Shown one piece after another: positions 2,699 to 63,507 of a DNA stretch of 64,000 bases (positions are counted from its first letter, which is position 1; each line of letters starts with the position of its first letter). The DNA comes from Escherichia phage BYEP02. A model generated the notes under the pieces. The model saw only the letters and a list, made by a program, of their open reading frames with translations, did not search any database and was not told the origin of the DNA. The DNA is taken from the sequence record OR757454.1. One strand, 5' to 3'. The position numbers and the translations under genes were made by a program.

Positions 2699-5600
2699 TT
2701 ATGCTAAACGAACGATATAGTTAAAAGCAATGTTTTTAACCGTGTTTTCTGTATTACCTGTACTATTTACAGTGATAGTATGTCCGTGCGAACCAATAGC
2801 TACCGTGTGGGTATGAGCACCAATACCGACCGAATGGCTATGGGCACCGATACCTACAGTATGCGCGTGGTTACCCGTAGAGCTAGTAGTACCAGACCAA
2901 GTATGGGTATGGTTACCTTCTGTTGACGACTTTGCAATATATTGGCTTGTACCAGGCACAACACCGTTGCTTAGGCCAAAACCAACAACCAGGGTTCCGC
3001 TAATTCGAGTAGATCCATTAGGATATATTCCTGTGGGTTGATTATTAGTACCCCTTGGACCGGTTTGTGAGTGTTGGTGCGCACCAGCGGAACTAGTATT
3101 ACCACTCACTGTATGGCTATGGTTACCAGTGGTATTACTGGTCTTAGTACCATAATCAAAGCTTGAAGTCGTTTTGCTACCGTAATCAAAACTAGAAGTG
3201 GTCTTAGTACCCAAATCTGTGCTTGATGCACTTGCACTATGGCTATGTGACTTAACACCGTCTGCTTCTGTACTCAATACAGCACGCCCGGATGGTTTAC
3301 CCTTGATAGTTTGACCACGCATATCAGGCAGAGTGCCGGAAGGATACACCGCAGCTAACTTAGGATACAAGTCAGCATCAAATGTTTGACCTTCCATTAT
3401 GGCATAACCTTCAGGAGGTGTATCAGTAGGCCAAGGAATCGGAGCACCAATAGGATAACTTGAGACAATATCCGTCTTAAGGTTATTTATTGTGGTATTC
3501 AAGTTAGCAAAATTACCAGAACCACCTGTGATGTTACCGTCAGTACCAATTCGAATATTATTAATTTTAAGAGGCTTAGTAATATCGACTGTATCAGCAT
3601 TCAATGCAATGCCGTGGGAGTAAGTGTAATTATGCATACGAACAACATTACCACCATCGCCAATACCTAAATACCATTTTGTTACATCTGCTTTACGTCC
3701 TTGAATAAAGTTAGATGATGCTTGAGATGATGCGTTGAGCACAATACCGTCAGAATCCATGTTAACACGAAGTCTAACATCAGTCTGAACGAATTTTGAT
3801 ACATTATCAATAGTAAGCAAATTTTTTCCAGCTTGTGTATGATTACCAATCATAACACTGCCATTTGCAAGATTGATGGTAAATGGGCGTAAATTACTTA
3901 TTCCACCACTTTTACCAGCGTCTTTAAGAGTAGGAATAATATAAAAGCTAGTTTCTGAACGACGGAAAATAGCGCCGTATTCAGCATTCCAAATTCTCAA
4001 CGCATCTGCTGTTCCACCGAATTTAGCCTGACCATTTACAGATAATCCATTATTTGCAACTAAACTTGATTCAGTAACAATAGAACCAGATGATGTAATA
4101 CCACCAGAAGTTAATAAACCACCATTAACTCGAAATTGAATAGGTCCGACGGTAGAACCTGATCCGGGAGCAACTCGTTGAGAATAAAAATGGTAACCTT
4201 GTCCATCTGATACTTGAAAAACTGTTTCACGAGCACGATTGCCAGATGCATTAAAGGCATTACCCCATGCTTTGATAGATAGATAACTTTTATTCTGACC
4301 TGGGCGAGTACCGGCGGCCCACAATATAGTTTTAGTGCCATCTGTTGTTGTAGGAGCGTCAAGTTGAATACCATCGGGTCTAGCACCAGTAAGAACTAAT
4401 CTATAGTTTTAGTGCCATCTGTTGTTGTAGGAGCGTCAAGTTGAATACCGTCGGGTCTAGCACCAGTAAGAACTAATCCGTTATCAAATTTAATTCTTTG
4501 TATTGAAGATACTGTTCCGTCGGCATAAAACTGTACGTTATTAGAGCCAGTTACCAATTTCAAAATACCCGGGTTAACTTCCATGCCTTCTTGAGTATTA
4601 ATATTAGTTTTGCCTTTACCACGGAAATAGTGGTTCATTTTTCCGCCTGAGTTATAGCCAATATGTGTCTGACCGTCTCCAGCAGTGTTTTCATCAGCTT
4701 GTGTTTGAACTGATAAAAATGCAGCGTTCGTTCCAGGCATAATCCATGTTGTACCTTGGTCTTCTGAGCGTCCAAATATTGCTTTACGAGTACTACGGAA
4801 ACTATCAGGTGTGATAGATGCCAAAGATAAACCAGAACCAACGAAATCAAATACACCAGTTTTTCTATAAACTAGACCAGTTCCATTATCGCCTAAAGCA
4901 AGAAATATATTTCCTAGTGCCCCAGCATTTCCATAATCGCTTGACGGAAACCCTTGCGTCACAGTACCAATGGCCAAGCTATTGCGAATAATCATTCTAC
5001 CGTCGTTACGAATACCATATAGTTTAAATAACGGTGTATTACCAGTCCACCATGACATTTCATCTGCCAGTCCAGTCTGAGCTGTACAAATTTCATGGTA
5101 AATAGTTCCACCTGATTTAGCACGAACTTTACGAAGATAGTTTACGCCATTTGTTTCACCTGTTCCAGGATAAACATACTGAACTAATGACTGTGAATCA
5201 TATTGTCCAAAGGCTTTAGAATCGTGATTAATTAAATTAACACTAATAGTTGGTGTACTAATAGAAGTTAAAGCAGTTAATTTGCGTGCCTGGAAGATAC
5301 CACCATCAGTAGAAATGAAATGAAATTCTGAATTTTGAGCTCCCGCAGCGGTTCCTTGACGAACACGCATTGTAATTACGCCTTCATTTTCAGACTGCGG
5401 TTTTGAATATAAAACGCCACGTTCTGAGCCATTTGTATTTTCAAACCAAAGATGGGCATTTGCAGTATCGTTTGTTGCTCTTGCATAAAATGAACCCTGT
5501 GTAGATCTGAAAACTTTTGCTGTTACGCCATCAGTAGAACCAATAGGTCCATTTACAGTCATTCCACCCGTTTGTACATAATCGCCATTTAATCTCAAAA

Positions 5601-6612: not shown

Positions 6613-7808
6613 TTATACTTCTCTAAATTCTTGCCCAAACACTTTACCAGTTTTAGACGATGCTTGTGTAGGAAGTACCATTATATCCGGAGGTGAAGCA
6701 GATTCGCAGATATAATTAACACGAATACCATTGACGCCAAATTCAGCAGGTTTTGAAATGCCGCCATTTCTTGATACTTCAGAAAAGCTTAAATTTCTCA
6801 TGCCACCTTGGCCAGCTTTAGCAGTTCTCTGTGCATATATCGTAAATCCTACTGCGTTTTCTGGAACAACTACATAATCTTCCTTTAATTCCCATGACCC
6901 AGCTTGCCCAGTAAATTCAGCTTGTGTCGAGGAAATATATCCATTTGATGCATTATAAAAACGGATAGATATATTTGTAGTTCCAAGAGCAAGTAAATCA
7001 GCATCGGCGTATAGCTGTGTTTTAAGATAAAGAACATCACCAGGAATTAAATTATAATCAGAGAGTTTACTTATTGCAGCCGAAGTTGGTAGACGCGCAA
7101 TTTCGTTATTAGTTCCACCAACCGCTGACATAAATTGCTCAACGCTTTCATACGTTCTTCTTGGAAAGCCGGTAGCTCCGACGTCTTCTAAACTGTCAAA
7201 TACAACATCTAAAATAGTTTGATAATCATCTGTGCTTTTTCTATTACTCAGTTTAACATGCTCTAATGCAATAGCTCTTTTAGAAGAAGTATAAAAAGCA
7301 GCATATGATACGTCGAATCTTGACAGTACAGAGTCAGATGGAAAAGCAGACGTTCCAGCGGTTCTTAGCCAAGATACTACCTCAGGAGGAAAATTAACCT
7401 TTCCACTGGTTAATATAGCAACAAGTCTGTTGTTTGAAAAAGAATTCATGAAACTAACAAAAGCAGCTGATGTAGTATCATTTGAAGTCGAAAAAGCATA
7501 TGACTTACTATCAACTAATGCTCCTGTAGAAGGGTCAAAAACTCTTAAATGAAGTCCTGCGCTAAATGTTTGACTTCCAACAGGATTATCCTGAAATTTA
7601 ACGTAGAAGGGTCAAAAACTCTTAAATGAAGTCCTGCGCTAAATGTTTGACTTCCAACAGGATTATCCTGAAATTTAACGTATGGTCCTTCTGCAGTAGA
7701 AAGCGGGCAAGAACCCGCTATACTTATTTTATATCTTACTGAATTGCTTTCCGATAAAAATGGCGTTTGGACATATCCTTGTCCAAACTCTGCCATAAAT
7801 TTTTCCAT
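6613..7808 (-). CDS. 35: gp35 long tail fibre hinge, frame broken by 77-bp duplication (7526-7679)
   Basis: MEKFMAEFGQGYVQTPFLSES... N-term and ...GQEFREV C-term; 372 aa after removing one repeat copy. Confidence 0.8.
7526..7679. repeat. 77-bp direct tandem duplication inside gene 35
   Basis: copies 7526-7602 and 7603-7679; identical. Confidence 0.9.
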
Positions 7809-46889: not shown

Positions 46890-47303
46890 ATGAGATTAGA
46901 AGATCTTCAAGAAGAATTGAAGAAAGATGTGTTTATAGATTCGACTAAATTGCAGTATGAAGCAGCTAATAATGTGATGTTATATAGTAAATGGCTTAAT
47001 AAGCATTCAAGTATTAAAAAGGAAATGCTTAGAATTGATGCACAGAAAAAAGTTGCTCTTAAAGCTAAATTAGACTACTACTCGGGACGAGGAGATGGTG
47101 ATGAATTTAGTATGGATCGTTACGAGAAATCAGAAATGAAGACAGTTCTATCAGCTGATAAGGATGTTTTAAAGGTTGATACCTCGCTGCAGTATTGGGG
47201 GATTTTATTGGATTTCTGTAGCGGAGCTCTTGATGCTATCAAATCACGTGGATTTGCTATTAAGCATATTCAAGACATGCGGGCATTTGAGGCTGGAAAA
47301 TAA
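46890..47303 (+). CDS. uvsY: UvsY recombination mediator
   Basis: 137 aa MRLEDLQEELKKDVFIDSTKLQYEAANNV... Confidence 0.9.
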   Translation: MRLEDLQEELKKDVFIDSTKLQYEAANNVMLYSKWLNKHSSIKKEMLRIDAQKKVALKAKLDYYSGRGDGDEFSMDRYEKSEMKTVLSADKDVLKVDTSLQYWGILLDFCSGALDAIKSRGFAIKHIQDMRAFEAGK

Positions 47304-47527
47304 TGAGATATAGCATTGATGATGCTTTTAATTATGAAGAAGAATTTGAAACGGAAATTCAATTCTTAATGAAAAAGCATAATCTTAAGCGTCAGGATAT
47401 TCGTATCCTGGCCGATCACCCGTGTGGTGAAGATGTCCTTTATATTAAAGGAAAATTTGCCGGATATCTTGATGAATATTTTTATTCTAAAGATATGGGC
47501 ATTGATATGCATATGAGAGTTGTATAA
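47303..47527 (+). CDS. hypothetical small protein (74 aa)
   Basis: ORF track; 3' end and downstream late promoter lie inside duplicated unit 47462-47615. Confidence 0.45.
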   Translation: MRYSIDDAFNYEEEFETEIQFLMKKHNLKRQDIRILADHPCGEDVLYIKGKFAGYLDEYFYSKDMGIDMHMRVV

Positions 47528-47615
47528 ATAGATATATAGGATATCTTGATGAATATTTTTATTCTAAAGATATGGGCATTGATATGCATATGAGAGTTGT
47601 ATAAATAGATATATA
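47462..47615. repeat. 77-bp direct tandem duplication spanning small ORF 3' end and a TATAAATA late-promoter motif
   Basis: copies 47462-47538 and 47539-47615; identical. Confidence 0.9.
47523..47530 (+). promoter_or_regulatory. late promoter motif TATAAATA (duplicated copy at 47600-47607)
   Basis: upstream of ORF 47633. Confidence 0.4.
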
Positions 47616-47632
47616 ATTCAGAGGAGACAATC

Positions 47633-47800
47633 ATGTCAGATAAGATTTGTGTTGTCTGTAAAACTCCAATCGATTCTGCATTGGTTGTTGAAACAGACAA
47701 AGGTCCTGTACATCCTGGGCCTTGCTATAATTACATTAAAGAACTACCAGTTTCAGAAAGTTCGGAAGAACAATTAAATGAAACACAACTTTTGCTATAG
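47633..47800 (+). CDS. hypothetical small Cys-containing protein (55 aa)
   Basis: MSDKICVVCKTPIDS...GPCYNY...; CxxC plus distal Cys; preceded by TATAAATA. Confidence 0.4.
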   Translation: MSDKICVVCKTPIDSALVVETDKGPVHPGPCYNYIKELPVSESSEEQLNETQLLL

Positions 47801-47823
47801 TGTGACCTTTAGTCTATAGTTTT

Positions 47824-47852
47824 GGCCCTTCCTTTTTGGTTGGGCCTTTTTT
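47824..47852. terminator. bidirectional terminator between convergent ORFs
   Basis: GGCCC-loop-GGGCC followed by TTTTTT. Confidence 0.45.
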
Positions 47853-47855
47853 AAT

Positions 47856-48163
47856 TTAAAAGCTTTCTTCTACTTCATCGTCTGAATCTTCTAATTCAGC
47901 TCTTTTTCCTGCCAAAGCATCTCTCACAGAGATGTCATCAGTATCTTTTAATTCAGTTTCTTTGACTCTTTTCTTGTAATAAGCTTCAAGTTCTTCTAAA
48001 CCTTCTAATGTTTGACAAGAGGCAATTTTACCCATAAATTCATCAATAGAAGCTTCATAAAGAAATTGTTTAAATTACCTTCTAATGTTTGACAAGAGGC
48101 AATTTTACCCATAAATTCATCAATAGAAGCTTCATAAAGAAATTGTTTAAATCCTAGTAACAT
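47856..48163 (-). CDS. UvsW.1-like small protein, frame broken by 77-bp duplication (48000-48153)
   Basis: MLLGFKQFLYEASIDEFMGKIASCQTLEGL...; 76 aa after removing one repeat copy. Confidence 0.5.
48000..48153. repeat. 77-bp direct tandem duplication inside uvsW.1-like ORF
   Basis: copies 48000-48076 and 48077-48153; 1 mismatch. Confidence 0.9.
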
Positions 48164-48188
48164 CTTTTTCTCCAAAGGGCCGAAGCCC

Positions 48189-49854
48189 TTATAAATTAAC
48201 TGTTTTCATTACGTAATTAAATTTTTCATCTGCGTAGCGCTGAATACGATCAATGCCGTGTTTTAAAAGATAGTTCAAATGAACATATTTCTTTTTCGTA
48301 TTAGCAGATTTTGGCTTAACACCACAATCATCTATGAGGTCCCAGACTGTTGCGACTGTTTTAGAACCATGCTTACGTAATACACGACCGATTGTTTGTA
48401 ATACAATGATTTTTGATTTAACGCCGTGCGCTATGTCTTAGAACCATGCTTACGTAATACACGACCGATTGTTTGTAATACAATGATTTTTGATTTAACA
48501 CCGTGCGCTAAAACAACATGATGCAGATTTTTAACTGAAATACCAGTAGAAAATACACCATAACTCGCTACTATAATTATTCCTTTACCATTTTCAGCTA
48601 AGGTTTTCATTACGTTGCGGGTTTCGGTATCAACTTCCCCTGATACGTAATAAACTTTATCGTATTCATTTTTAATTAAATCGAAAATAGCTTTACCATG
48701 CGATACATGTTTAAACATGACAAAAGCGTTTTCATCTTTTTGTCATTTTTAATTAAATCGAAAATAGCTTTACCATGCGATACATGTTTAAACATGACAA
48801 AAGCGTTTTCATCTTTTTGTGCAAGCTTAATAGCTAATTTAGCGATCCATTTATTTCTTTTACTGAGCCCAGTAATAATTTTTATTTCTTCTTGGTAAGT
48901 TTTTCCCTTTAATTTAGTAGTGAACTCATCGGGATAGCGAAGAAAAATACTATTAATTTTTAACTCAGTTACTTGTCCATCTTCCATTAATTTAGAGGTC
49001 GTTACTGGCTTAAATATTTCACCAAACATTCCAACATACTGCATGATATTGGCTTTGCCGTCACGTAATGAACCAGACAAACCAAATTTAAACATGCAGT
49101 TATTTAAACCTGATATGATAGATGAAATACTTTTTCCTGTAGCAAGATGGCATTCATCATTCATCATCATTCCAAACTGTGAGAACCATTCTTTCGGTTG
49201 TTTAACTACAGTTTGCCATGTACCAACGACGACTGGTGCATCATTTTTATATTTATCATCTTTTGATGCTCCGCCACCAATTTTCTTTATCATTGCATGA
49301 CTGAATAAACGATAGTCAACAAAGTCATCAGCCATCTGAGTTGTCAGAGCAGTTGTTGGAACAATGATAAGAATTTTACCTTCATAATTTTCCAAATAAT
49401 ATCGCGCAAGCAAAGCTTGAATTAAAGATTTACCAGCAGATGTTGGAAGATTAAGAATTCTACGACGATTAACTAATCCTTCGAACACTGCATCTTTTTG
49501 ATACCAGTGCGGTTCAATTCTTTTATTTCCTGAATAGATTTCTAATTTAGAAAGCCATTCATCAAAATCTTTTCTTGATAATTCTTCTTTTTCGTTAATT
49601 TGTGGGTCAATCCAGGCTTTATAGCCAAAGTTATCACAGAACTTTTTAATTTGCCCGACTAAGCCGAATGGAAGAAGACGATTATAATCTAAAAGACGGA
49701 TTCGTCCATCCCAGTGGCCATATCTGTACTTCGGATTAAAACGATACCCATCAGCTTCAAAGCTAAAGAAATCACGGAGTTCATGAAATGTACTTTCTTC
49801 GCAATCAATTCTCACGTGACTAAAATCATAAAAATGTACTTTAATGTCAGTCAT
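48189..49854 (-). CDS. uvsW: UvsW DNA/RNA helicase, frame broken by two 77-bp duplications
   Basis: MTDIKVHFYDFSHVRIDCEESTFHEL...; 1666 nt minus 154 = 503 aa + stop. Confidence 0.85.
48361..48514. repeat. 77-bp direct tandem duplication inside uvsW (divergent copies)
   Basis: copies 48361-48437 and 48438-48514; about 4 mismatches. Confidence 0.85.
48666..48819. repeat. 77-bp direct tandem duplication inside uvsW
   Basis: copies 48666-48742 and 48743-48819; identical. Confidence 0.9.
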
Positions 49855-49883
49855 GTCTAAATACCATGTAATAAATATATCTA

Positions 49884-49891
49884 TATTTATA
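49884..49891 (-). promoter_or_regulatory. late promoter motif TATAAATA upstream of uvsW
   Basis: TATTTATA on plus strand 30 nt upstream of uvsW start. Confidence 0.4.
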
Positions 49892-49904
49892 CTGAGGAAA
49901 TATT

Positions 49905-50662
49905 ATGATAGATAAAGATTATATTGCAGAGCTGAAGGCTCTTGATGATAATAAAGAAGCTAAGGCTAAATTAGCTGAATATGCTGAACAGTTTGGTATA
50001 AAGGTCAAAAAGAATAAATCTTTTGATAATATCGTTATTGATATTGAAGAAGCCCTCCAGAAGCTCGCTAGTGAACCTATGCCAGAGACTGATGGGTTAT
50101 CTATTAAAGACTTAATTGATGCTGCTGATGCCGCAGAGGGATTAAAATATGACGATGAAGAAGTCAATCCAGAAGCAGCACTTCTGATTGATTCTCCGGT
50201 TAAATCTGACATTAAAATTGAAGTAGTAGAAATGGATAAAATTCCCGAAAATACCGATGTTTTGATTGAAGATACTCCTTTTGTTGAAGAAAAATTTGAA
50301 CAGGCTGTAGCTGAGATTATTGAATCTGAAAAGCCGTCTGTATTTACTCTTCCGGAAAACTTTAGTCCGAATCTTCAGCTGATTGGAAAAAATCCAGGAT
50401 TCTGCACTGTTCCTTGGTGGATTTATCAATGGATAGCTGAAACTCCGGATTGGAAATCTCACCCAACTAGTTTTGAACATGCACTGTTCCTTGGTGGATT
50501 TATCAATGGATAGCTGAAACTCCGGATTGGAAATCTCACCCAACAAGTTTTGAGCATGCGTCAGCACACCAAACTTTATTTAGCTTAATTTATTACATTA
50601 ACCGTGACGGATCAGTTTTAATTCGTGAAACACGCAATTCTTCTTTCGTAACATTAAAATAA
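49905..50662 (+). CDS. inh: Inh, inhibitor of prohead protease, frame broken by 77-bp duplication (50403-50556)
   Basis: after removing one copy frame ends at TAA 50660-50662 = 226 aa. Confidence 0.7.
50403..50556. repeat. 77-bp direct tandem duplication inside inh
   Basis: copies 50403-50479 and 50480-50556; 2 mismatches. Confidence 0.9.
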
Positions 50663-50671
50663 GGATAACTT

Positions 50672-52167
50672 ATGACTTTTACAGTTGATATAACTCCTAA
50701 AACACCTACTGGAGTTATAGATGAGACTAAGCAGTTTACTGCTACGCCCAGTGGTCAAACTGGAGATGGACCTATTACCTATGCTTGGACTGTTGATGAT
50801 GCACCGCAGGAAGAAACGTCTGCAACTTTTAGTTATGTACTAAAAGGTCCTGCTGGACAAAAGACTATTAAGGTAGTTGCAACAAATCCAGTTCCTGATT
50901 CTGAAGCTGAAACAGCTGAAATTAGTACAACTATCACAGTTCAAAATAAGACACAAACAACTACTTTAGCTGTAACTCCTGGTAGCCCTGATGCTGGAGT
51001 GATTGGAACTCCAATTGAATTTACCGCTGCCTTAGCTTCACAGCCATCAGGTGCAAACGCTACATATCAATGGTACGTTGACGGTTCTCCTGTGGGCGAA
51101 GCAACTGGCACTACATTCAATTACACTCCTGACGCAAGCGGAGTTAAAACAATTAAGTGTGTAGCTCAAGTAACCGCGACAGATTATGATGCAAAGGAAG
51201 TTACTTCTAATGAAGTGTCACTGACTGTTAATAAGAAAACACAGACAACTACGTTAGCCGTAACTCCTGCTAATCCTCCAGCAGGAGTTATTGGAACCCC
51301 AGTTCAATTTACTGCTACCTTGGCTTCACAGCCACCAGGAGCGTCTGCTACGTATCAGTGGTATGTTGACGGTTCTCTGGTCGATGGAGAAACTACTACT
51401 ACATTTAACTATACTCCTACCACAGTTGGAGCTAAAACAGTTAAGTGTGTAGCGCAAGTAACTGCAGAAAATTACAATGAAAAGGAAGTTACTTCTAATG
51501 AAGTATCATTGACTGTTAATAAGAAAACAATGAATCCACGGGTTACATTGACTCCTCCTTCTATTAACGTTCAGCAAGATGCTTCGGCTACATTTACTGC
51601 TAATGTTACGGATGCTCCAGAAGAAGCACAAATCGAATATTCATGGAAGAAAGATTCTTCTCCAGTAGAAGGGTCAACTAATGTATACACTGTTGATACA
51701 TCATCTATTGGAAGTCAAACTATTGAAGTTACTGCAACTATTACTGCAACTGATTACGATAGCAAAACTATTACAGCAGAAGGTCAAGTTCAGGTAACTG
51801 ATAAAGTTGCTCCGGAACCAGAAGGTGAATTACCTTATGTTCATCCTCTTCCACATCGCACTTCAGCTTATATCTTGATAAAGTTGCTCCAGAACCAGAA
51901 GGTGAATTGCCTTATGTTCATCCTCTTCCACATCGCACTTCAGCTTACATCTGGTGCGGTTGGTGGGTTATGGATGAAATCCAAAAAATGACCGAAGAAG
52001 GTAAAGATTGGAAAACTGAAGATCCAGATAGTAAGTACTACTTGCATCGTTACACTCTTCAGAAGATGATGAAAGACTATCCAGAAGTTGATGTCCAAGA
52101 ATCGCGTAATGGATACATCATTCATAAAACTGCTTTAGAAACTGGTATCATCTATACCTATCCATAA
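50672..52167 (+). CDS. hoc: Hoc outer capsid decoration protein with four tandem Ig-like domains, frame broken by 77-bp duplication (51799-51952)
   Basis: MTFTVDITPKTPTGVIDETKQFTATPSG...; ORF pieces 50672..51991 and 51907..52167 join to 472 aa after removing one repeat copy. Confidence 0.85.
50946..51527 (+). repeat. intragenic tandem repeat of about 290 bp encoding Ig-like domains 2 and 3 of Hoc
   Basis: two in-frame units starting near 50946 and 51231, roughly 85 percent identical by eye (TQTTTLAVTPGSPDAGVIGTP... vs TQTTTLAVTPANPPAGVIGTP...). Confidence 0.7.
51799..51952. repeat. 77-bp direct tandem duplication inside hoc
   Basis: copies 51799-51875 and 51876-51952; 3 mismatches. Confidence 0.9.
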
Positions 52168-52171
52168 TCAT

Positions 52172-52200
52172 AAGGGGCTTCGGCCCCTTTCTTCATTTTG
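52172..52200 (+). terminator. rho-independent terminator after hoc
   Basis: AAGGGGCTTCGGCCCCTT followed by T-rich tract. Confidence 0.5.
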
Positions 52201-52256
52201 AAAGCACACAAAACACAATCAGAAAATGATGTATATAATGGCACCAACTCGATAAC

Positions 52257-52472
52257 ATGAGATTGATTATGAGAACTGAGGTTGTGGTGTTTACTCTTCA
52301 TGAGTCTGGAAAGTCATTCATTGAAATTGCTCGTGAATTAAACTTACAGGCAAAAGAAGTGGCTGTATTATGGGCTCGAGCTATGACTGCTAAGAATAAA
52401 TTTGAAACTCGAGAAAAAGTTGTCTATAGAAAAAGACATATTAATAAAAAGGTGAAAAATGGAACAGTATGA
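52257..52472 (+). CDS. hypothetical protein (71 aa)
   Basis: ORF track. Confidence 0.35.
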   Translation: MRLIMRTEVVVFTLHESGKSFIEIARELNLQAKEVAVLWARAMTAKNKFETREKVVYRKRHINKKVKNGTV

Positions 52473-52737
52473 TCTTTATGAAAATGAATCTTTTGCTAAT
52501 CAATTACGCGAAAAAGCATTCAAAAGTAAACAGTTTAAGCTAGAGTGTTTTATTAAAGATTTTTCGGAACTTGCTAATAAAGCAGCTGAACAAGGTAAAA
52601 CACATTTTAATTATTATTGTATTGCTCGTGATAAATTGATTACTGAAGAAATTGGTGATTGGCTGAGAAAAGAAGGATTCAGCTTTAAAGTCAATAGTGA
52701 TCAGCGTGATGGTGATTGGTTAGAAATTACATTTTGA
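52459..52737 (+). CDS. hypothetical protein (92 aa)
   Basis: ORF track. Confidence 0.4.
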   Translation: MEQYDLYENESFANQLREKAFKSKQFKLECFIKDFSELANKAAEQGKTHFNYYCIARDKLITEEIGDWLRKEGFSFKVNSDQRDGDWLEITF

Positions 52738-52746
52738 GGATTAATT

Positions 52747-53828
52747 ATGTTTAAAAAGTATAGCAGTCTTGAAAATCATTACAATTCTAAATTCATTGAA
52801 AAACTTTATAGTTTAGGATTGACTGGCGGCGAATGGGTAGCTCGTGAAAAGATTCATGGTACAAATTTCTCGTTGATTATTGAGCGCGATAAAGCAACTT
52901 GTGCTAAACGTACTGGACCGATTCTTCCTGCTGAAGATTTCTTTGGGTATTGATTATTGAGCGTGATAAAGTAACTTGCGCTAAACGTACTGGACCAATT
53001 CTTCCTGCTGAAGATTTCTTCGGTTATGAAATTATTTTAAAGAATTACGAAGATTCTATTAAAGCTGTCCAAGAAATTATGGAAACTTCAGCTGTTGTGA
53101 CTTATCAAGTTTTTGGCGAATTCGCTGGACCTGGCATTCAGAAGAATGTCGATTATGGCGATAAAGATTTTTATGTATTTGACATTATTGTTACTACCGA
53201 AAGTGGTGATGTAACTTATGTTGATGATTACATGATGGAATCGTTTTGTAATTCATTTGGGTTTAAAATCGCTCCACTTTTGGGTCGTGGTAAATTTGAA
53301 GATCTTATTAAACTTCCAAATGATTTGGATTCTGTTGTTCCGTCTTATAATTTTACCGTAGATAATGCAGGTTTAATTGACGCTAACAAATGTGTTTGGA
53401 AAGCTGAAGCCAAAGGCGAAGTATTTACCGCTGAAGGATATGTATTGAAACCTTGTTATCCTTCTTGGCTGCCTAATCGCAATCGTGTAGCCATCAAATG
53501 CAAGAATTCTAAATTTAGTGAAAAGAAAAAGTCTGATAAGCCTATTAAAGCTAAAGTTGAACTGTCAGAAGCTGATAACAAATTGGTGGGGATTTTAGCT
53601 TGTTACGTTACACTAAACCGAGTAAATAACGTTATTTCTAAAATTGGCGAAATTGGTCCAAAAGATTTTGGAAAGGTGATGGGACTAACTGTTCAAGATA
53701 TTTTGGAAGAAACTTCTCGTGAAGGTATTACTCTAACTCAAGCGGATAATCCTTCTTTGATTAAAAAGGAATTAGTTAAAATGGTACAAGATGTACTTCG
53801 TCCGGCTTGGATTGAATTGGTAAGTTAA
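52747..53828 (+). CDS. rnlB: RNA ligase 2, frame broken by 77-bp duplication (52873-53026)
   Basis: [42 protein letters not shown]... KxHGxN motif; 334 aa after removing one repeat copy. Confidence 0.9.
52873..53026. repeat. 77-bp direct tandem duplication inside rnlB (most divergent pair)
   Basis: copies 52873-52949 and 52950-53026; about 6 mismatches. Confidence 0.9.
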
Positions 53829-53832
53829 ATAA

Positions 53833-53854
53833 AAAGGGACCGAAAGGTCCCTTT
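53833..53854. terminator. bidirectional terminator between rnlB and gene 24
   Basis: GGGACCGAAAGGTCCC flanked by A-run and T-run. Confidence 0.5.
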
Positions 53855-53857
53855 GTT

Positions 53858-55218
53858 TTATTCATCAATGATAATTTTTGGTAGCTTAACACCTAATAAA
53901 ACAGACAAATCTGAACGACCCGCCATTTTATCCATGTCTCCACCATCAATTACTCTTGCTTCTTTTTCATCTTTTGCTACGGTGTAAGGATTTGCTGATA
54001 AAGCATATCTAACTAATAAACCGATAGATGGCTGCAAACTTTCTGGGTCAACTACAACTTTAAATGCACCTACATGTTCAGGGTCATCTAAGTCAAGACC
54101 TTCTGTATACGGAGCATAGAAAATTGATCCAACAATTTCTTTTTCACCGATATTTTCTACTACGCCAACGATTACATAATCTAATGGGCTGTTAGTATCG
54201 CAATAAAGCGGTAAACCATTAGCTAAGAACCCGTAGGCATTTTGTGAAAGATATTTGTCATCTTCTGGTTTATGTTTTAACCAACCTGATGCAGCAAGAA
54301 TCGCAGCGGCACGAGCTTTTGTGAAAGATATTTGTCATCTTCTGGTTTATGTTTTAACCAACCTGATGCAGCAAGAATCGCAGCGGCACGAGCTGAAGCA
54401 ACACAGAACGTTGCCGTATAAGTTGATTCTTTTTGGATATGCGAAACCATTTCACATACCATTCGGTATAATGAACGACCAGCTTCAGGAGCAGATGCAT
54501 AACTCAAATCGATGAATCCAGTATCAGTAATTCCTGTAACTTTATAGCGTTTTGACACTGTAATCAAAGACTGCAGAATGTCTTTATTGATTTCATCTGC
54601 CATTTCAGTTGCAAGCAAATCTTCCAAGAAATTAGGAGCATCGAATCCATTTGCTTCTAAATCTTGTGCTAATTCAACTGTGATGCCAGTTTTAAGTTTA
54701 CGAGATTTAACTGCGGTTTGCCATTTATTAATCTGGAATCTAGCATCCGCAATTTCACTATCAGAGCTTTCAAATTTGCTTGTTGACGCTGCATCAGAAA
54801 ATAGACGAACCTTTAAAAGAACAATTGCAATCTGAAGAGCTAACTCTAAGTCGCTTTCTTCAATATCAGCAAATGGTGTATCTTCTAATACTTTATAAAC
54901 GATATTATTATATTTGAATAAATCGCCTTTATTGAGAGTTAATTTAGACTCTTCTGTTAATTCTGTGATTTGTTCTCGGTCTACATATCCAGCTTCGCCA
55001 GCGTAAGTAGCACCCGTTTTAAACGTAAATTCGTTATCTGGGTTAAGGTATTTGATACCATAAAAAGCAGCAACAGGTTGATTAGTTCTTTGCGTTGCTA
55101 CAATGTCAGAATATATTAATTTAGTGGTAGCGCGAGTCAAAGCAACGAGATTTGGGCGACCGATTGAGTTGCTATTCGTTGTGGTTGATTCGCGCAGAAG
55201 TTCGTTGATTTTAGCCAT
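53858..55218 (-). CDS. 24: gp24 capsid vertex protein, frame broken by 77-bp duplication (54240-54393)
   Basis: MAKINELLRESTTTNSNSIGRPNL...; 427 aa after removing one repeat copy. Confidence 0.85.
54240..54393. repeat. 77-bp direct tandem duplication inside gene 24
   Basis: copies 54240-54316 and 54317-54393; identical. Confidence 0.9.
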
Positions 55219-61373: not shown

Positions 61374-63507
61374 TTAACCTGCAAGACCAGTTAACTCGTC
61401 GAAATCTGCACCAGTAGCAGTTGCGACGAAATTAAGTTGGATATAATTTATACTTCTAGCCGGTTGGATGTAGAATGTTGCAACAAACTCATTTCTATCA
61501 ATTACTGACGGAGTGTTATTTGTTGTATCGCAAACTACACGATATTCATAAATTCCACCGAGAGCTTTAATTCCCTGTAAGTATTGGGCAGTTTCTGTGC
61601 GGAACGATGAACGGGTAAACGCGTTGTTTAATTCGAACAAACGATATTTTGAACTACGTCCGATATTCGTTTTCAACATATTAAACAGACGACGAACGTT
61701 AATACGATCAAATGGAGAAGGAACAGAAGTAGCTGTTTTATCACCATACAATACGTAACCATCACCACCTGTACCGGTTACCGGGTTGATAGCTTCTTGG
61801 TATAAACGGTCGCGCTGAGCCTGGCGAGTTTCAATAGCAAGTTTAATAACGTTAAGAATCTGACCACGATTATAACCAGCTGGAGACATCCAAGTCTGAG
61901 ATACGTTATCAGTTCTTGCGCATAAACCAGCAATATCAGCTGCTAATGGAACCCAGCGATTGACATCATTATATTTGTCATACTGATATTTGTAGTTACC
62001 ATCAATTGCTGCATAGGTTGAACTGATATTAAAGTTATTATCAGTGTATGAACCTGTTGCGGTTCTCCAATTGACTAAGTTATCAACAGCGCGAGTTACA
62101 GGAATTCCAACTACAGTTTCGCGCGGTGGTGAGCACAATACTAAGCAATCCTGGCGAGCATCCCCGATTGAAACGACGTGTTTTTGGACAGTAGATGCTG
62201 TTTCTAAAGATTCACCGGCACAAGAACCCGCAATAAACAACTGAACGTCAACAGATTCACGGTCAGCAAAGAAGTCCCAGGCTTCCATTAAATCTCCTGC
62301 TGTTACTTCAGCATTTGATGATAATCCACCAGACAGAGTTAAAATTCCAGAGAAGCCTTCTGGCCAGTTTTGTGCAGTTGCAAAAATATATTCTGAACCA
62401 CCTTTTGCGAAAAAGTCATCGATATAGATGTTACTATCGTAAATATCTTTTTCACCGCGCTTTGTTGAAAGAACAACGCTTTGAACAATAGCATCATTAC
62501 GACGAACTATAATAGCGTACTGTGAATCAGTTTGTGGTCCATATCCAAACACAGTTTTAGCAGTAGATGCACGAGTACCACCGCCTGGATAAATTGGGAG
62601 TAATGCAGAAGCACCTTTTGCATAGTCAGCTTTAGATACTATTTCAATTTCAATTTTATCGCCTAATTCGCCTGGATAAAGCGCTACTACTCCTGGAATT
62701 CCGTATTTTTCGAGATTTGCTTGAAAGCCAACCTCTGTCATAGCAGCTTCAGCATTTTCAATTTCAGCTAATAAAATACCAGAATCAGTAATAATTTTTC
62801 CAAGAGTTATTACTGCAGCTAAACCAGAGCATTTTCAATTTCAGCTAATAAAATACCAGAATCAGTAATAATTTTTCCAAGAGTTATTACTGCAGCTAAA
62901 CCAGAGGAAGATGAAGAAATTTCCGCAGTCCAGTTAGAACCTAATTCCGGATATTCACCGACTTCTTTAGCTTTAGCGATAATTTTTGCAGTAGGAATAT
63001 TAATTTTCTTAATTTTTCCATCTACGTCTACTTCAGTAATTTTACCTTCAGTTTCAATAGCATCTGAAACATATTTGACCGTGATTTTATCTCCAACTGC
63101 GTAGTTACTACCTGGGGTAGAAATTGTGTATTCAATATTACCGGCAATCGGAGATGAGTTTTTAGCGGTATCTCTATCGACAGCACGCACAACTCGCAAA
63201 TCATTTCCATATTGTAAGAAATTCATTGCAGACATAAAATAGTCAGCAGTTTCAGCTGTAGGTTGACCAAAAGTATTAACTAAATCTACTTCATTTGTAA
63301 CCTGTTTGATCTGAAAAGCAGGACCCCACTGGAATTTACCGGCCAAAGCTGCTGTACCAGTAGAGTTATTAACCACGGTGCTTTGAACTGAAAAGCAGGA
63401 CCCCACTGGAATTTACCGGCCAAAGCTGCTGTACCAGTAGAGTTATTAACCACGGTGCTTTGAACCGTAGTTTCTTTGAGCTCAATGCCCGGAGATAATA
63501 AAGTCAT
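61374..63507 (-). CDS. 18: gp18 tail sheath protein, frame broken by two 77-bp duplications
   Basis: MTLLSPGIELKETTVQSTVVNNSTGTAALAGKF...; 2134 nt minus 154 = 659 aa + stop. Confidence 0.85.
62751..62904. repeat. 77-bp direct tandem duplication inside gene 18
   Basis: copies 62751-62827 and 62828-62904; identical. Confidence 0.9.
63311..63464. repeat. 77-bp direct tandem duplication inside gene 18
   Basis: copies 63311-63387 and 63388-63464; identical. Confidence 0.9.

Follow-up and report, generated by a model that had tools for sequence, protein, structure and literature searches.

The hoc locus of phage BYEP02

The window analysed here is a stretch of 64,000 nt from the Escherichia phage BYEP02 record OR757454.1. 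Positions 50672..52167 of its plus strand are occupied by hoc, the gene encoding the highly immunogenic outer capsid protein. The assignment was based on a phmmer comparison with T4 Hoc (376 aa, PDB 5vf3_Z; E = 1e-206, two aligned stretches) and on gene order: hoc is flanked by inh and by homologues of 24.3, 24.2, and rnlB, and lies near uvsW, an order shared with the annotation of T4, pSs-1, teqhad, and Lutter. Every testable feature of Hoc membership was found, i.e. the capsid-binding domain, the N-terminal string of Ig-like domains, and the genomic position.

A terminator-like hairpin (52172..52199, plus strand), consisting of AAGGGGC-TTCG-GCCCCTT and a subsequent T-run, is located 5 nt past the hoc stop codon. 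At the matching site, a 'terminator' is annotated in the related records G4500, G4507, and fPS-90. On the other side of inh, the gap between uvsW (minus strand) and inh (plus strand) comprises only ~50 nt (49855-49904). In T4, the GIY-YIG homing endonuclease gene segE is present between these two genes; given the small size of the gap, it is absent there in BYEP02.

As deposited, hoc is divided into a frameshifted ORF of 439 aa (50672-51991) and an overlapping ORF of 86 aa (51907-52167), which contains the true C-terminus. The longer ORF is 100% identical to WPK17975.1, a 'PKD domain protein' of Escherichia phage BYEP02. The frameshift is caused by a tandem duplication of 77 bp (51799-51875 and 51876-51952) that is absent from every close relative. 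Removal of either copy restored the same 472-aa protein, with the stop codon at 52165-52167. Both the identity of the gene and the two protein lengths given in the preliminary description of this DNA (472 aa for the reconstructed protein, 376 aa for T4 Hoc) were borne out.

Duplications of 77 bp throughout the record

The window contains 31 tandem duplications in total, each with a unit of exactly 77 bp. Seventeen are perfect and 14 carry 1-6 mismatches; they are 238-5649 nt apart, with a mean of about 2 kb. Examples besides the one in hoc (51799-51952) are found at 4325-4478, 7526-7682, 48666-48820, 50403-50556, 52873-53027, and 63311-63464. The interrupted genes include uvsW, inh, hoc, and rnlB among others, and many essential genes are frameshifted. 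All eight duplications located in 47000-54500 are missing from close relatives, in which the corresponding span is 6885 nt, i.e. 7501 minus 8 x 77. Judged from this pattern, the 77-bp duplications are best explained as an assembly artefact, in which contigs overlapping by k = 77 were concatenated without trimming.

Between the two copies in hoc there are three mismatches, all of them synonymous and at third codon positions (CCG/CCA, TTA/TTG, and TAT/TAC). Because of these differences, the joined pieces may derive from slightly different phage variants, and possibly the record represents a mixed lysate in the form of a chimeric consensus. Since hoc and many other genes are frameshifted, it is unsafe to rely on the BYEP02 annotation as it stands, e.g. 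on the 439-aa product named 'PKD domain protein'.

A diverged 288-bp tandem repeat within hoc

A repeat of a different kind was found in the interior of the gene. Tandem Repeats Finder (TRF) reported a two-copy repeat with a period of 288 bp at 50951-51529 (80% matches, score 760), and a second repeat search placed the copies at 50936-51223 and 51224-51511 with 78% identity. When set in codon register (50945-51232 and 51233-51520), the two units are 79.2% identical in DNA and share 73 of 96 residues (76%) in protein. As the period corresponds to 96 codons, the repeat is in frame.

For comparison, the identity of 288-nt blocks to the block 288 nt downstream was calculated over the whole window. 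It had a mean of 28% and did not exceed 38% outside the hoc repeat, so that the ~80% identity in hoc corresponds to a z of about 17. Chance similarity of the two units is ruled out by this background, since no other 288-nt block was more than 38% identical to its downstream block.

With a period that is a multiple of three, diverged copies, a dN/dS below 1, and occurrence in independent genomes, the repeat qualifies as a tandem in-frame domain duplication. The preliminary description had reported two adjacent in-frame tandem units in hoc, and this was confirmed, the units being arranged head to tail with a period of 288 bp. Its estimate of ~85% identity was somewhat high when compared with the 78-80% measured in DNA, and the term 'near-identical' for the encoded Ig-like domains overstated an amino-acid identity of 76%. 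Its distinction between a genuine, diverged evolutionary duplication and the 77-bp repeats agrees with the dN/dS of 0.25 and with the same arrangement in independent genomes.

Domain architecture of BYEP02 Hoc

T4 Hoc consists of three Ig-like domains followed by a non-Ig capsid-binding domain (PMC10385173, PMC9271167). The two stretches aligned by phmmer connect residues 1-190 of T4 Hoc with residues 1-190 of BYEP02 Hoc, and residues 177-376 of T4 Hoc with residues 273-472. The difference between the two proteins amounts to exactly one copy of Ig-like domain 2, with a length of 96 aa.

For counting Ig-like modules in Hoc proteins, a hidden Markov model was built from both BYEP02 units (hereafter unit HMM). 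The units themselves scored about 190 bits each, and domains 1 and 3 about 30 bits. On the plus strand, the gene encodes in succession (i) Ig-like domain 1 (aa 1-91; 50672..50944), which aligns with T4 Hoc 1-91, scores 30 bits with the unit HMM, and was modelled by AF2 as a beta-domain with a pLDDT of about 90; (ii) repeat unit 1, where Ig-like/PKD domain 2 occurs for the first time (aa 92-187; 50945..51232; 192 bits, Pfam PKD), a unit of 'type A' with the core residues P49, E52, and A53; (iii) repeat unit 2, where Ig-like/PKD domain 2 occurs for the second time (aa 188-283; 51233..51520; 190 bits, Pfam PKD), a unit of 'type B' with the core residues L/Q49, G52, and E53, which constitutes the 96 aa beyond T4 Hoc; (iv) Ig-like domain 3 (aa 284-376; 51521..51799), which aligns with T4 Hoc 188-280 and was likewise modelled by AF2 as a beta-domain; and (v) the capsid-binding domain at the C-terminus (aa 377-472; 51800..52164), which is nearly identical to T4 Hoc 281-376 and is split by the 77-bp duplication.

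The Pfam PKD model (PF00801) matched BYEP02 Hoc with 44.8 bits (gathering cut-off 23.5) in two stretches, one per unit; the best of them covers aa 196-265, inside unit 2. In the 376-aa Hoc of phage teqhad, a single PKD stretch was found. Domain 3 gave sub-threshold matches at aa 289-373 to Pfam Ig_3 (27.2 bits, cut-off 30) and I-set (18.5 bits, cut-off 23.7).

An AF2 model was calculated from an alignment of 31 homologues of 472 aa. It displayed four all-beta domains across residues 1-376, with pLDDT means of 85-96 for blocks of ten residues. A Foldseek search of the PDB with this model gave as best matches fragments of four Ig domains each, from Dscam1, Sidekick, and ICAM-5 (E about 1e-13). 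For the C-terminal domain, the pLDDT was below 50, most likely due to the shallow alignment of closely related sequences, and this domain was identified not from AF2 but by how closely its sequence agrees with the T4 domain of solved structure. All 16 of the 16 gp23-contact or conserved residues listed by Fokine 2023 are identical in BYEP02 Hoc; the list includes Y293, H295, R300, W309, W310, D313, and the E355-S-R-N-G359 loop (PMC10385173). RB49 Hoc was absent from the sequence matches at E <= 0.001 and from the top 50 Foldseek matches.

Domain prediction and alignment with T4 Hoc thus yielded a domain count that differs from that of T4, and the previously suggested four Ig-like domains, as against three in T4, are upheld by the unit HMM, Pfam PKD, AF2, Foldseek, and the T4 alignment.

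We also noted a weak family of 20-nt DNA elements at 50812-50831, 51100-51119, 51388-51407, and 51577-51596, i.e. at the same position in all four Ig-like modules, with spacings of 288, 288, and 189 nt. Together with the unit HMM matches to domains 1 and 3, this family is consistent with an older common origin of all four modules. Domain 3 further contains a tandem repeat of 12-13 nt (51729-51757; TTACTGCAACTGA, 2.3 copies), which encodes VTATITATD and is probably trivial.

Hoc length variants among Tequatrovirus

A search with the hoc region matched 657 phage records. The closest matches, e.g. Shigella phage pSs-1, were 97% identical, and their span in the record equalled that of BYEP02 minus 77 bp. 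In pSs-1, a 1419-bp gene encodes a protein of 472 aa annotated as 'Hoc-like head decoration' (YP_009110998.1). Its two units are 99.0% (unit 1) and 100% (unit 2) identical in DNA to those of BYEP02, and unit 2 is also 100% identical to that of Shigella phage sb4. BYEP02 Hoc showed 95% protein identity to database proteins of equal length, and its gene 95-97% DNA identity to genes annotated as Hoc of 472-aa length. The Hocs of pSs-1, EPIMRB01, AUBRB02, JEP6, and ime09 share the length of 472 aa and an architecture identical to that of BYEP02; their genes are 95-97% identical in DNA (unit 2, 100%) and show only point differences. Records of the pSs-1 type do not contain the artefactual 77-bp duplication carried by BYEP02 hoc.

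With unit 2 as the query, 890 places were found in 616 phage records. Of 60 records drawn from these at even spacing, 34 carried one copy of the unit, 23 two, two three, and one four copies. Extrapolating from this sample, roughly 40% of Tequatrovirus records have at least two copies of domain 2. The place counts were checked against annotation in three phages: Lutter has one place and a Hoc of 376 aa, slur14 four places and a Hoc of 664 aa, and pSs-1 a Hoc of 472 aa. Annotated Hoc lengths are 472 aa for pSs-1 and 376 aa for both teqhad and Lutter, and the proteins of the Hoc cluster have lengths of 376, 472, and 568 aa, for which the unit HMM counted three, four, and five modules, respectively. 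Hoc length thus follows a series of 376 + 96n aa (376, 472, 568, and 664 aa), corresponding to one to four copies of domain 2 and three to six Ig-like domains.

The longer forms, of 568 aa (e.g. UGKSEcP1) and 664 aa (slur14, YP_009180679.1), have three or four copies of domain 2 compared with two in BYEP02. Like BYEP02 Hoc, they combine the conserved capsid-binding domain with an Ig-like string, and their additional domains are the same domain-2 unit. The slur14 protein, with six Ig-like domains, is the largest Tequatrovirus allele among the Hocs examined. Its gene (slur14 record segment 364-2358) contains four diverged copies of domain 2 with 74-84% DNA identity among themselves.

The preliminary description had implied that the arrangement is a peculiarity of the BYEP02 genome. 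This is not the case, as many phages in GenBank have an annotated Hoc with the 472-aa architecture, and longer forms exist.

Age, selection, and probable recombination of the domain-2 units

Comparison of unit 1 with unit 2 gave a dS of 0.60, a dN of 0.15, and a dN/dS of 0.25. For domains 1 and 3 compared between BYEP02 and T4, dS was about 0.42 and dN/dS 0.27-0.30, and for the capsid-binding domain dN/dS was 0.06. Based on the unit values in relation to those of domains 1 and 3, these substitution rates indicate that the domain-2 duplication is old and that both copies have been under moderate purifying selection like the other exposed Ig-like domains.

Units taken from 120 representatives of the Hoc cluster were found to group by their position in the array. 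First units are of type A (P49, E52, A53, and A56), and later units of type B (Q/L49, G52, E53, and S/T56). Among single-copy domain-2 units, 12 of 80 clustered with type A and 68 of 80 with type B; single-copy genes displayed type A, type B, or mixed core and tail motifs. When amino-acid sites were required to separate first from last units strictly, only a trivial N/K at position 1 remained, since the units are mosaic; relaxed counts per column and painting of the DNA were informative.

For a closer view of single-copy genes, their DNA was painted using the 60 sites that distinguish BYEP02 unit 1 from unit 2. In teqhad, nearly all of these sites in the single domain 2 (record segment 1846-2133) match unit 1 as far as about nt 222, and nearly all match unit 2 from about nt 235 onwards. 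In Lutter (record segment 1201-1488), it is almost pure unit 2 past the first site. In the single domain 2 of T4, sites that agree with unit 1 and sites that agree with unit 2 are intermixed as a mosaic. The flanks of the teqhad and Lutter units are 96-99% identical in domain 3 and the C-terminal domain, and 85-93% identical in domain 1. Furthermore, among genomes that are 97% identical to BYEP02 over 7.5 kb, BGP is set apart from Lutter and Geo solely by copy number, the offset at hoc being precisely 288 bp.

The pattern in teqhad is exactly what would be expected of the product of an unequal crossover or a deletion between both repeats, and the single domain-2 copies of teqhad and Lutter have the appearance of deletions that arose independently from a hoc with two units. 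Some 376-aa alleles in close relatives therefore look like secondary contractions. From these patterns, we infer that the domain-2 array expands and contracts through unequal homologous recombination between repeats. Chimeric single-copy units could alternatively originate from gene conversion or from allelic recombination between phages. The direction implied previously, i.e. a duplication starting from a T4-like form, is not established, because some alleles of T4 length, such as the 376-aa forms of teqhad and Lutter, look like secondary deletions.

Origin of the four-domain allele

Taken jointly, the data very probably identify the feature as a Tequatrovirus hoc in its common, long four-Ig allele with a domain-2 array of variable copy number. 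How this allele arose can be read in different ways. First, the four-Ig form may be ancestral in the clade, with the T4-type three-Ig Hocs derived by deletion and BYEP02 retaining the older allele. The single domain-2 copies of teqhad and Lutter, which are clean recombinants of unit 1 and unit 2 in an otherwise highly conserved domain 3 and C-terminal context (96-99% identity), argue for this possibility, as does the mosaic of unit-1-like and unit-2-like sites in T4's own domain 2. In addition, dS between the units (0.60) is larger than that between orthologous domains of BYEP02 and T4 (about 0.42), suggesting that the duplication predates much of the divergence of the genus. However, more than half of the sampled records (34 of 60) have a single-copy form, and mosaicism renders the inference of ancestral states in this comparison among Tequatrovirus Hocs unreliable. 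We therefore regard an ancestral four-Ig form as quite possible, if somewhat short of an even chance.

Second, the two units might be domain-2 alleles that had already diverged in different phages before co-infection allowed unequal or illegitimate recombination to join them in tandem. Both unit types do occur as the sole domain 2 in 376-aa Hocs (12 of 80 type A, 68 of 80 type B), single-copy units show many combinations of core and tail, and T4-type phages are prone to recombine when the multiplicity of infection is high (PMC9271167). Yet homology between the domain 1/domain 2 and domain 2/domain 3 boundaries extends over only about 10 nt, so that such an event should be rare, and those single type A units that were examined in detail resemble deletion products, not sources. 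This origin thus appears unlikely.

Finally, although the record is visibly mis-assembled (31 exact 77-bp tandem duplications in 64 kb) and synonymous-looking differences in some of the 77-bp pairs hint at a mixed population, an origin of the 288-bp repeat itself as an assembly artefact, e.g. by diverged domain-2 alleles of two co-assembled phages being pasted in succession, is extremely improbable and effectively refuted, since no 77-bp joint lies within 50557-51798 and the whole repeat is contained in one contiguous block, the units share no exact match longer than 24 nt, which is too short to confuse a k = 77 assembler, the two-unit arrangement recurs in pSs-1 (units 99.0% and 100% identical) plus hundreds of other records, and the repeat is in frame with a dN/dS of 0.25.

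Predicted properties of the extended fibre

For the four-Ig Hoc with its variable domain-2 array, a mode of display can be proposed by analogy with T4 Hoc. As a T4-type Hoc, it would be a dispensable decoration protein, with one molecule per gp23* hexamer. The C-terminal domain would be seated centrally on each gp23* hexamer, and the four Ig-like domains would project from it as a roughly linear, acidic fibre. The T4 capsid carries 155 Hoc fibres, each 180 angstrom long (PMC10385173). If these 180 angstrom are simply divided by the four domains of T4 Hoc, the BYEP02 fibre would be longer than that of T4 by approximately one Ig domain, i.e. by about 45 angstrom. Unequal homologous recombination between the repeats probably accounts for the variation in the copy number of domain 2 (1, 2, 3, or 4) across the genus.

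The extra domain has a computed pI of 4.8, a net charge of about -2, and a mass of about 10 kDa. For the entire protein, the predicted mass is 50.8 kDa compared with 40.4 kDa for T4 Hoc, and the pI is 4.5 compared with 4.7. Binding of mucin glycans by Ig-like domains (BAM model) has been demonstrated for T4 Hoc only (PMC9271167). By extension from T4 Hoc, it is plausible that the four-Ig allele may alter glycan or mucus adherence or pH-dependent clustering; the effect on surface adhesion proposed in the preliminary description would likewise be an extension from T4.

Relation to known systems and implications

T4 Hoc (UniProt P18056; PDB 5VF3, 8T1X) shares with BYEP02 Hoc the position of its gene, all capsid-contact residues, and an acidic character; in BYEP02 Hoc, domain 2 is present once more (96 aa), which makes four Ig-like domains compared with three. 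More distant parallels are the arrays of Ig-like/PKD domains in bacterial adhesins and in other phage decoration proteins, e.g. T5 pb10, which resemble Hoc as surface-displayed beta-sandwich modules, arranged in tandem in the adhesins. In bacterial adhesin arrays, recombination between repeats changes copy number. Hoc differs in its dedicated C-terminal anchor at the hexamer centres, and T5 pb10 has a single Ig-like domain with a different anchoring domain. The number of Ig-like domains also varies among Hoc homologues, with 10 such domains in Hoc of Serratia phage Muldoon (Fokine 2023, PMC10385173). The Muldoon protein follows the same principle of a variable Ig string but is only distantly related to BYEP02 Hoc.

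Our literature searches retrieved no explicit account of a four-Ig Tequatrovirus Hoc, of the 376/472/568/664 series, or of its recombinational origin. BYEP02 Hoc is nonetheless an ordinary, already catalogued allele and not a new kind of system, and the length series fills a modest descriptive gap. Its value as a discovery is low, because Hocs of the same architecture are already annotated and variation in Ig number has been published (Fokine 2023).

Possibly, the domain-2 array is a recombination hot spot at which selection by habitat or host, e.g. gut mucus, sewage, or different hosts, tunes the length, valency, and charge of the 155 fibres. As a whole we consider this reading rather doubtful; its recombination part is fairly well supported, and adaptive tuning is conjecture. 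If true, the variable repeat number of bacterial adhesins would have an equivalent in phages. As a scaffold for display and vaccines, T4 Hoc is in wide use, and it is the model for the adherence of phages to mucus. The natural alleles with three, four, five, and six Ig-like domains constitute a ready length series for questions of adhesion, aggregation, and antigen display.
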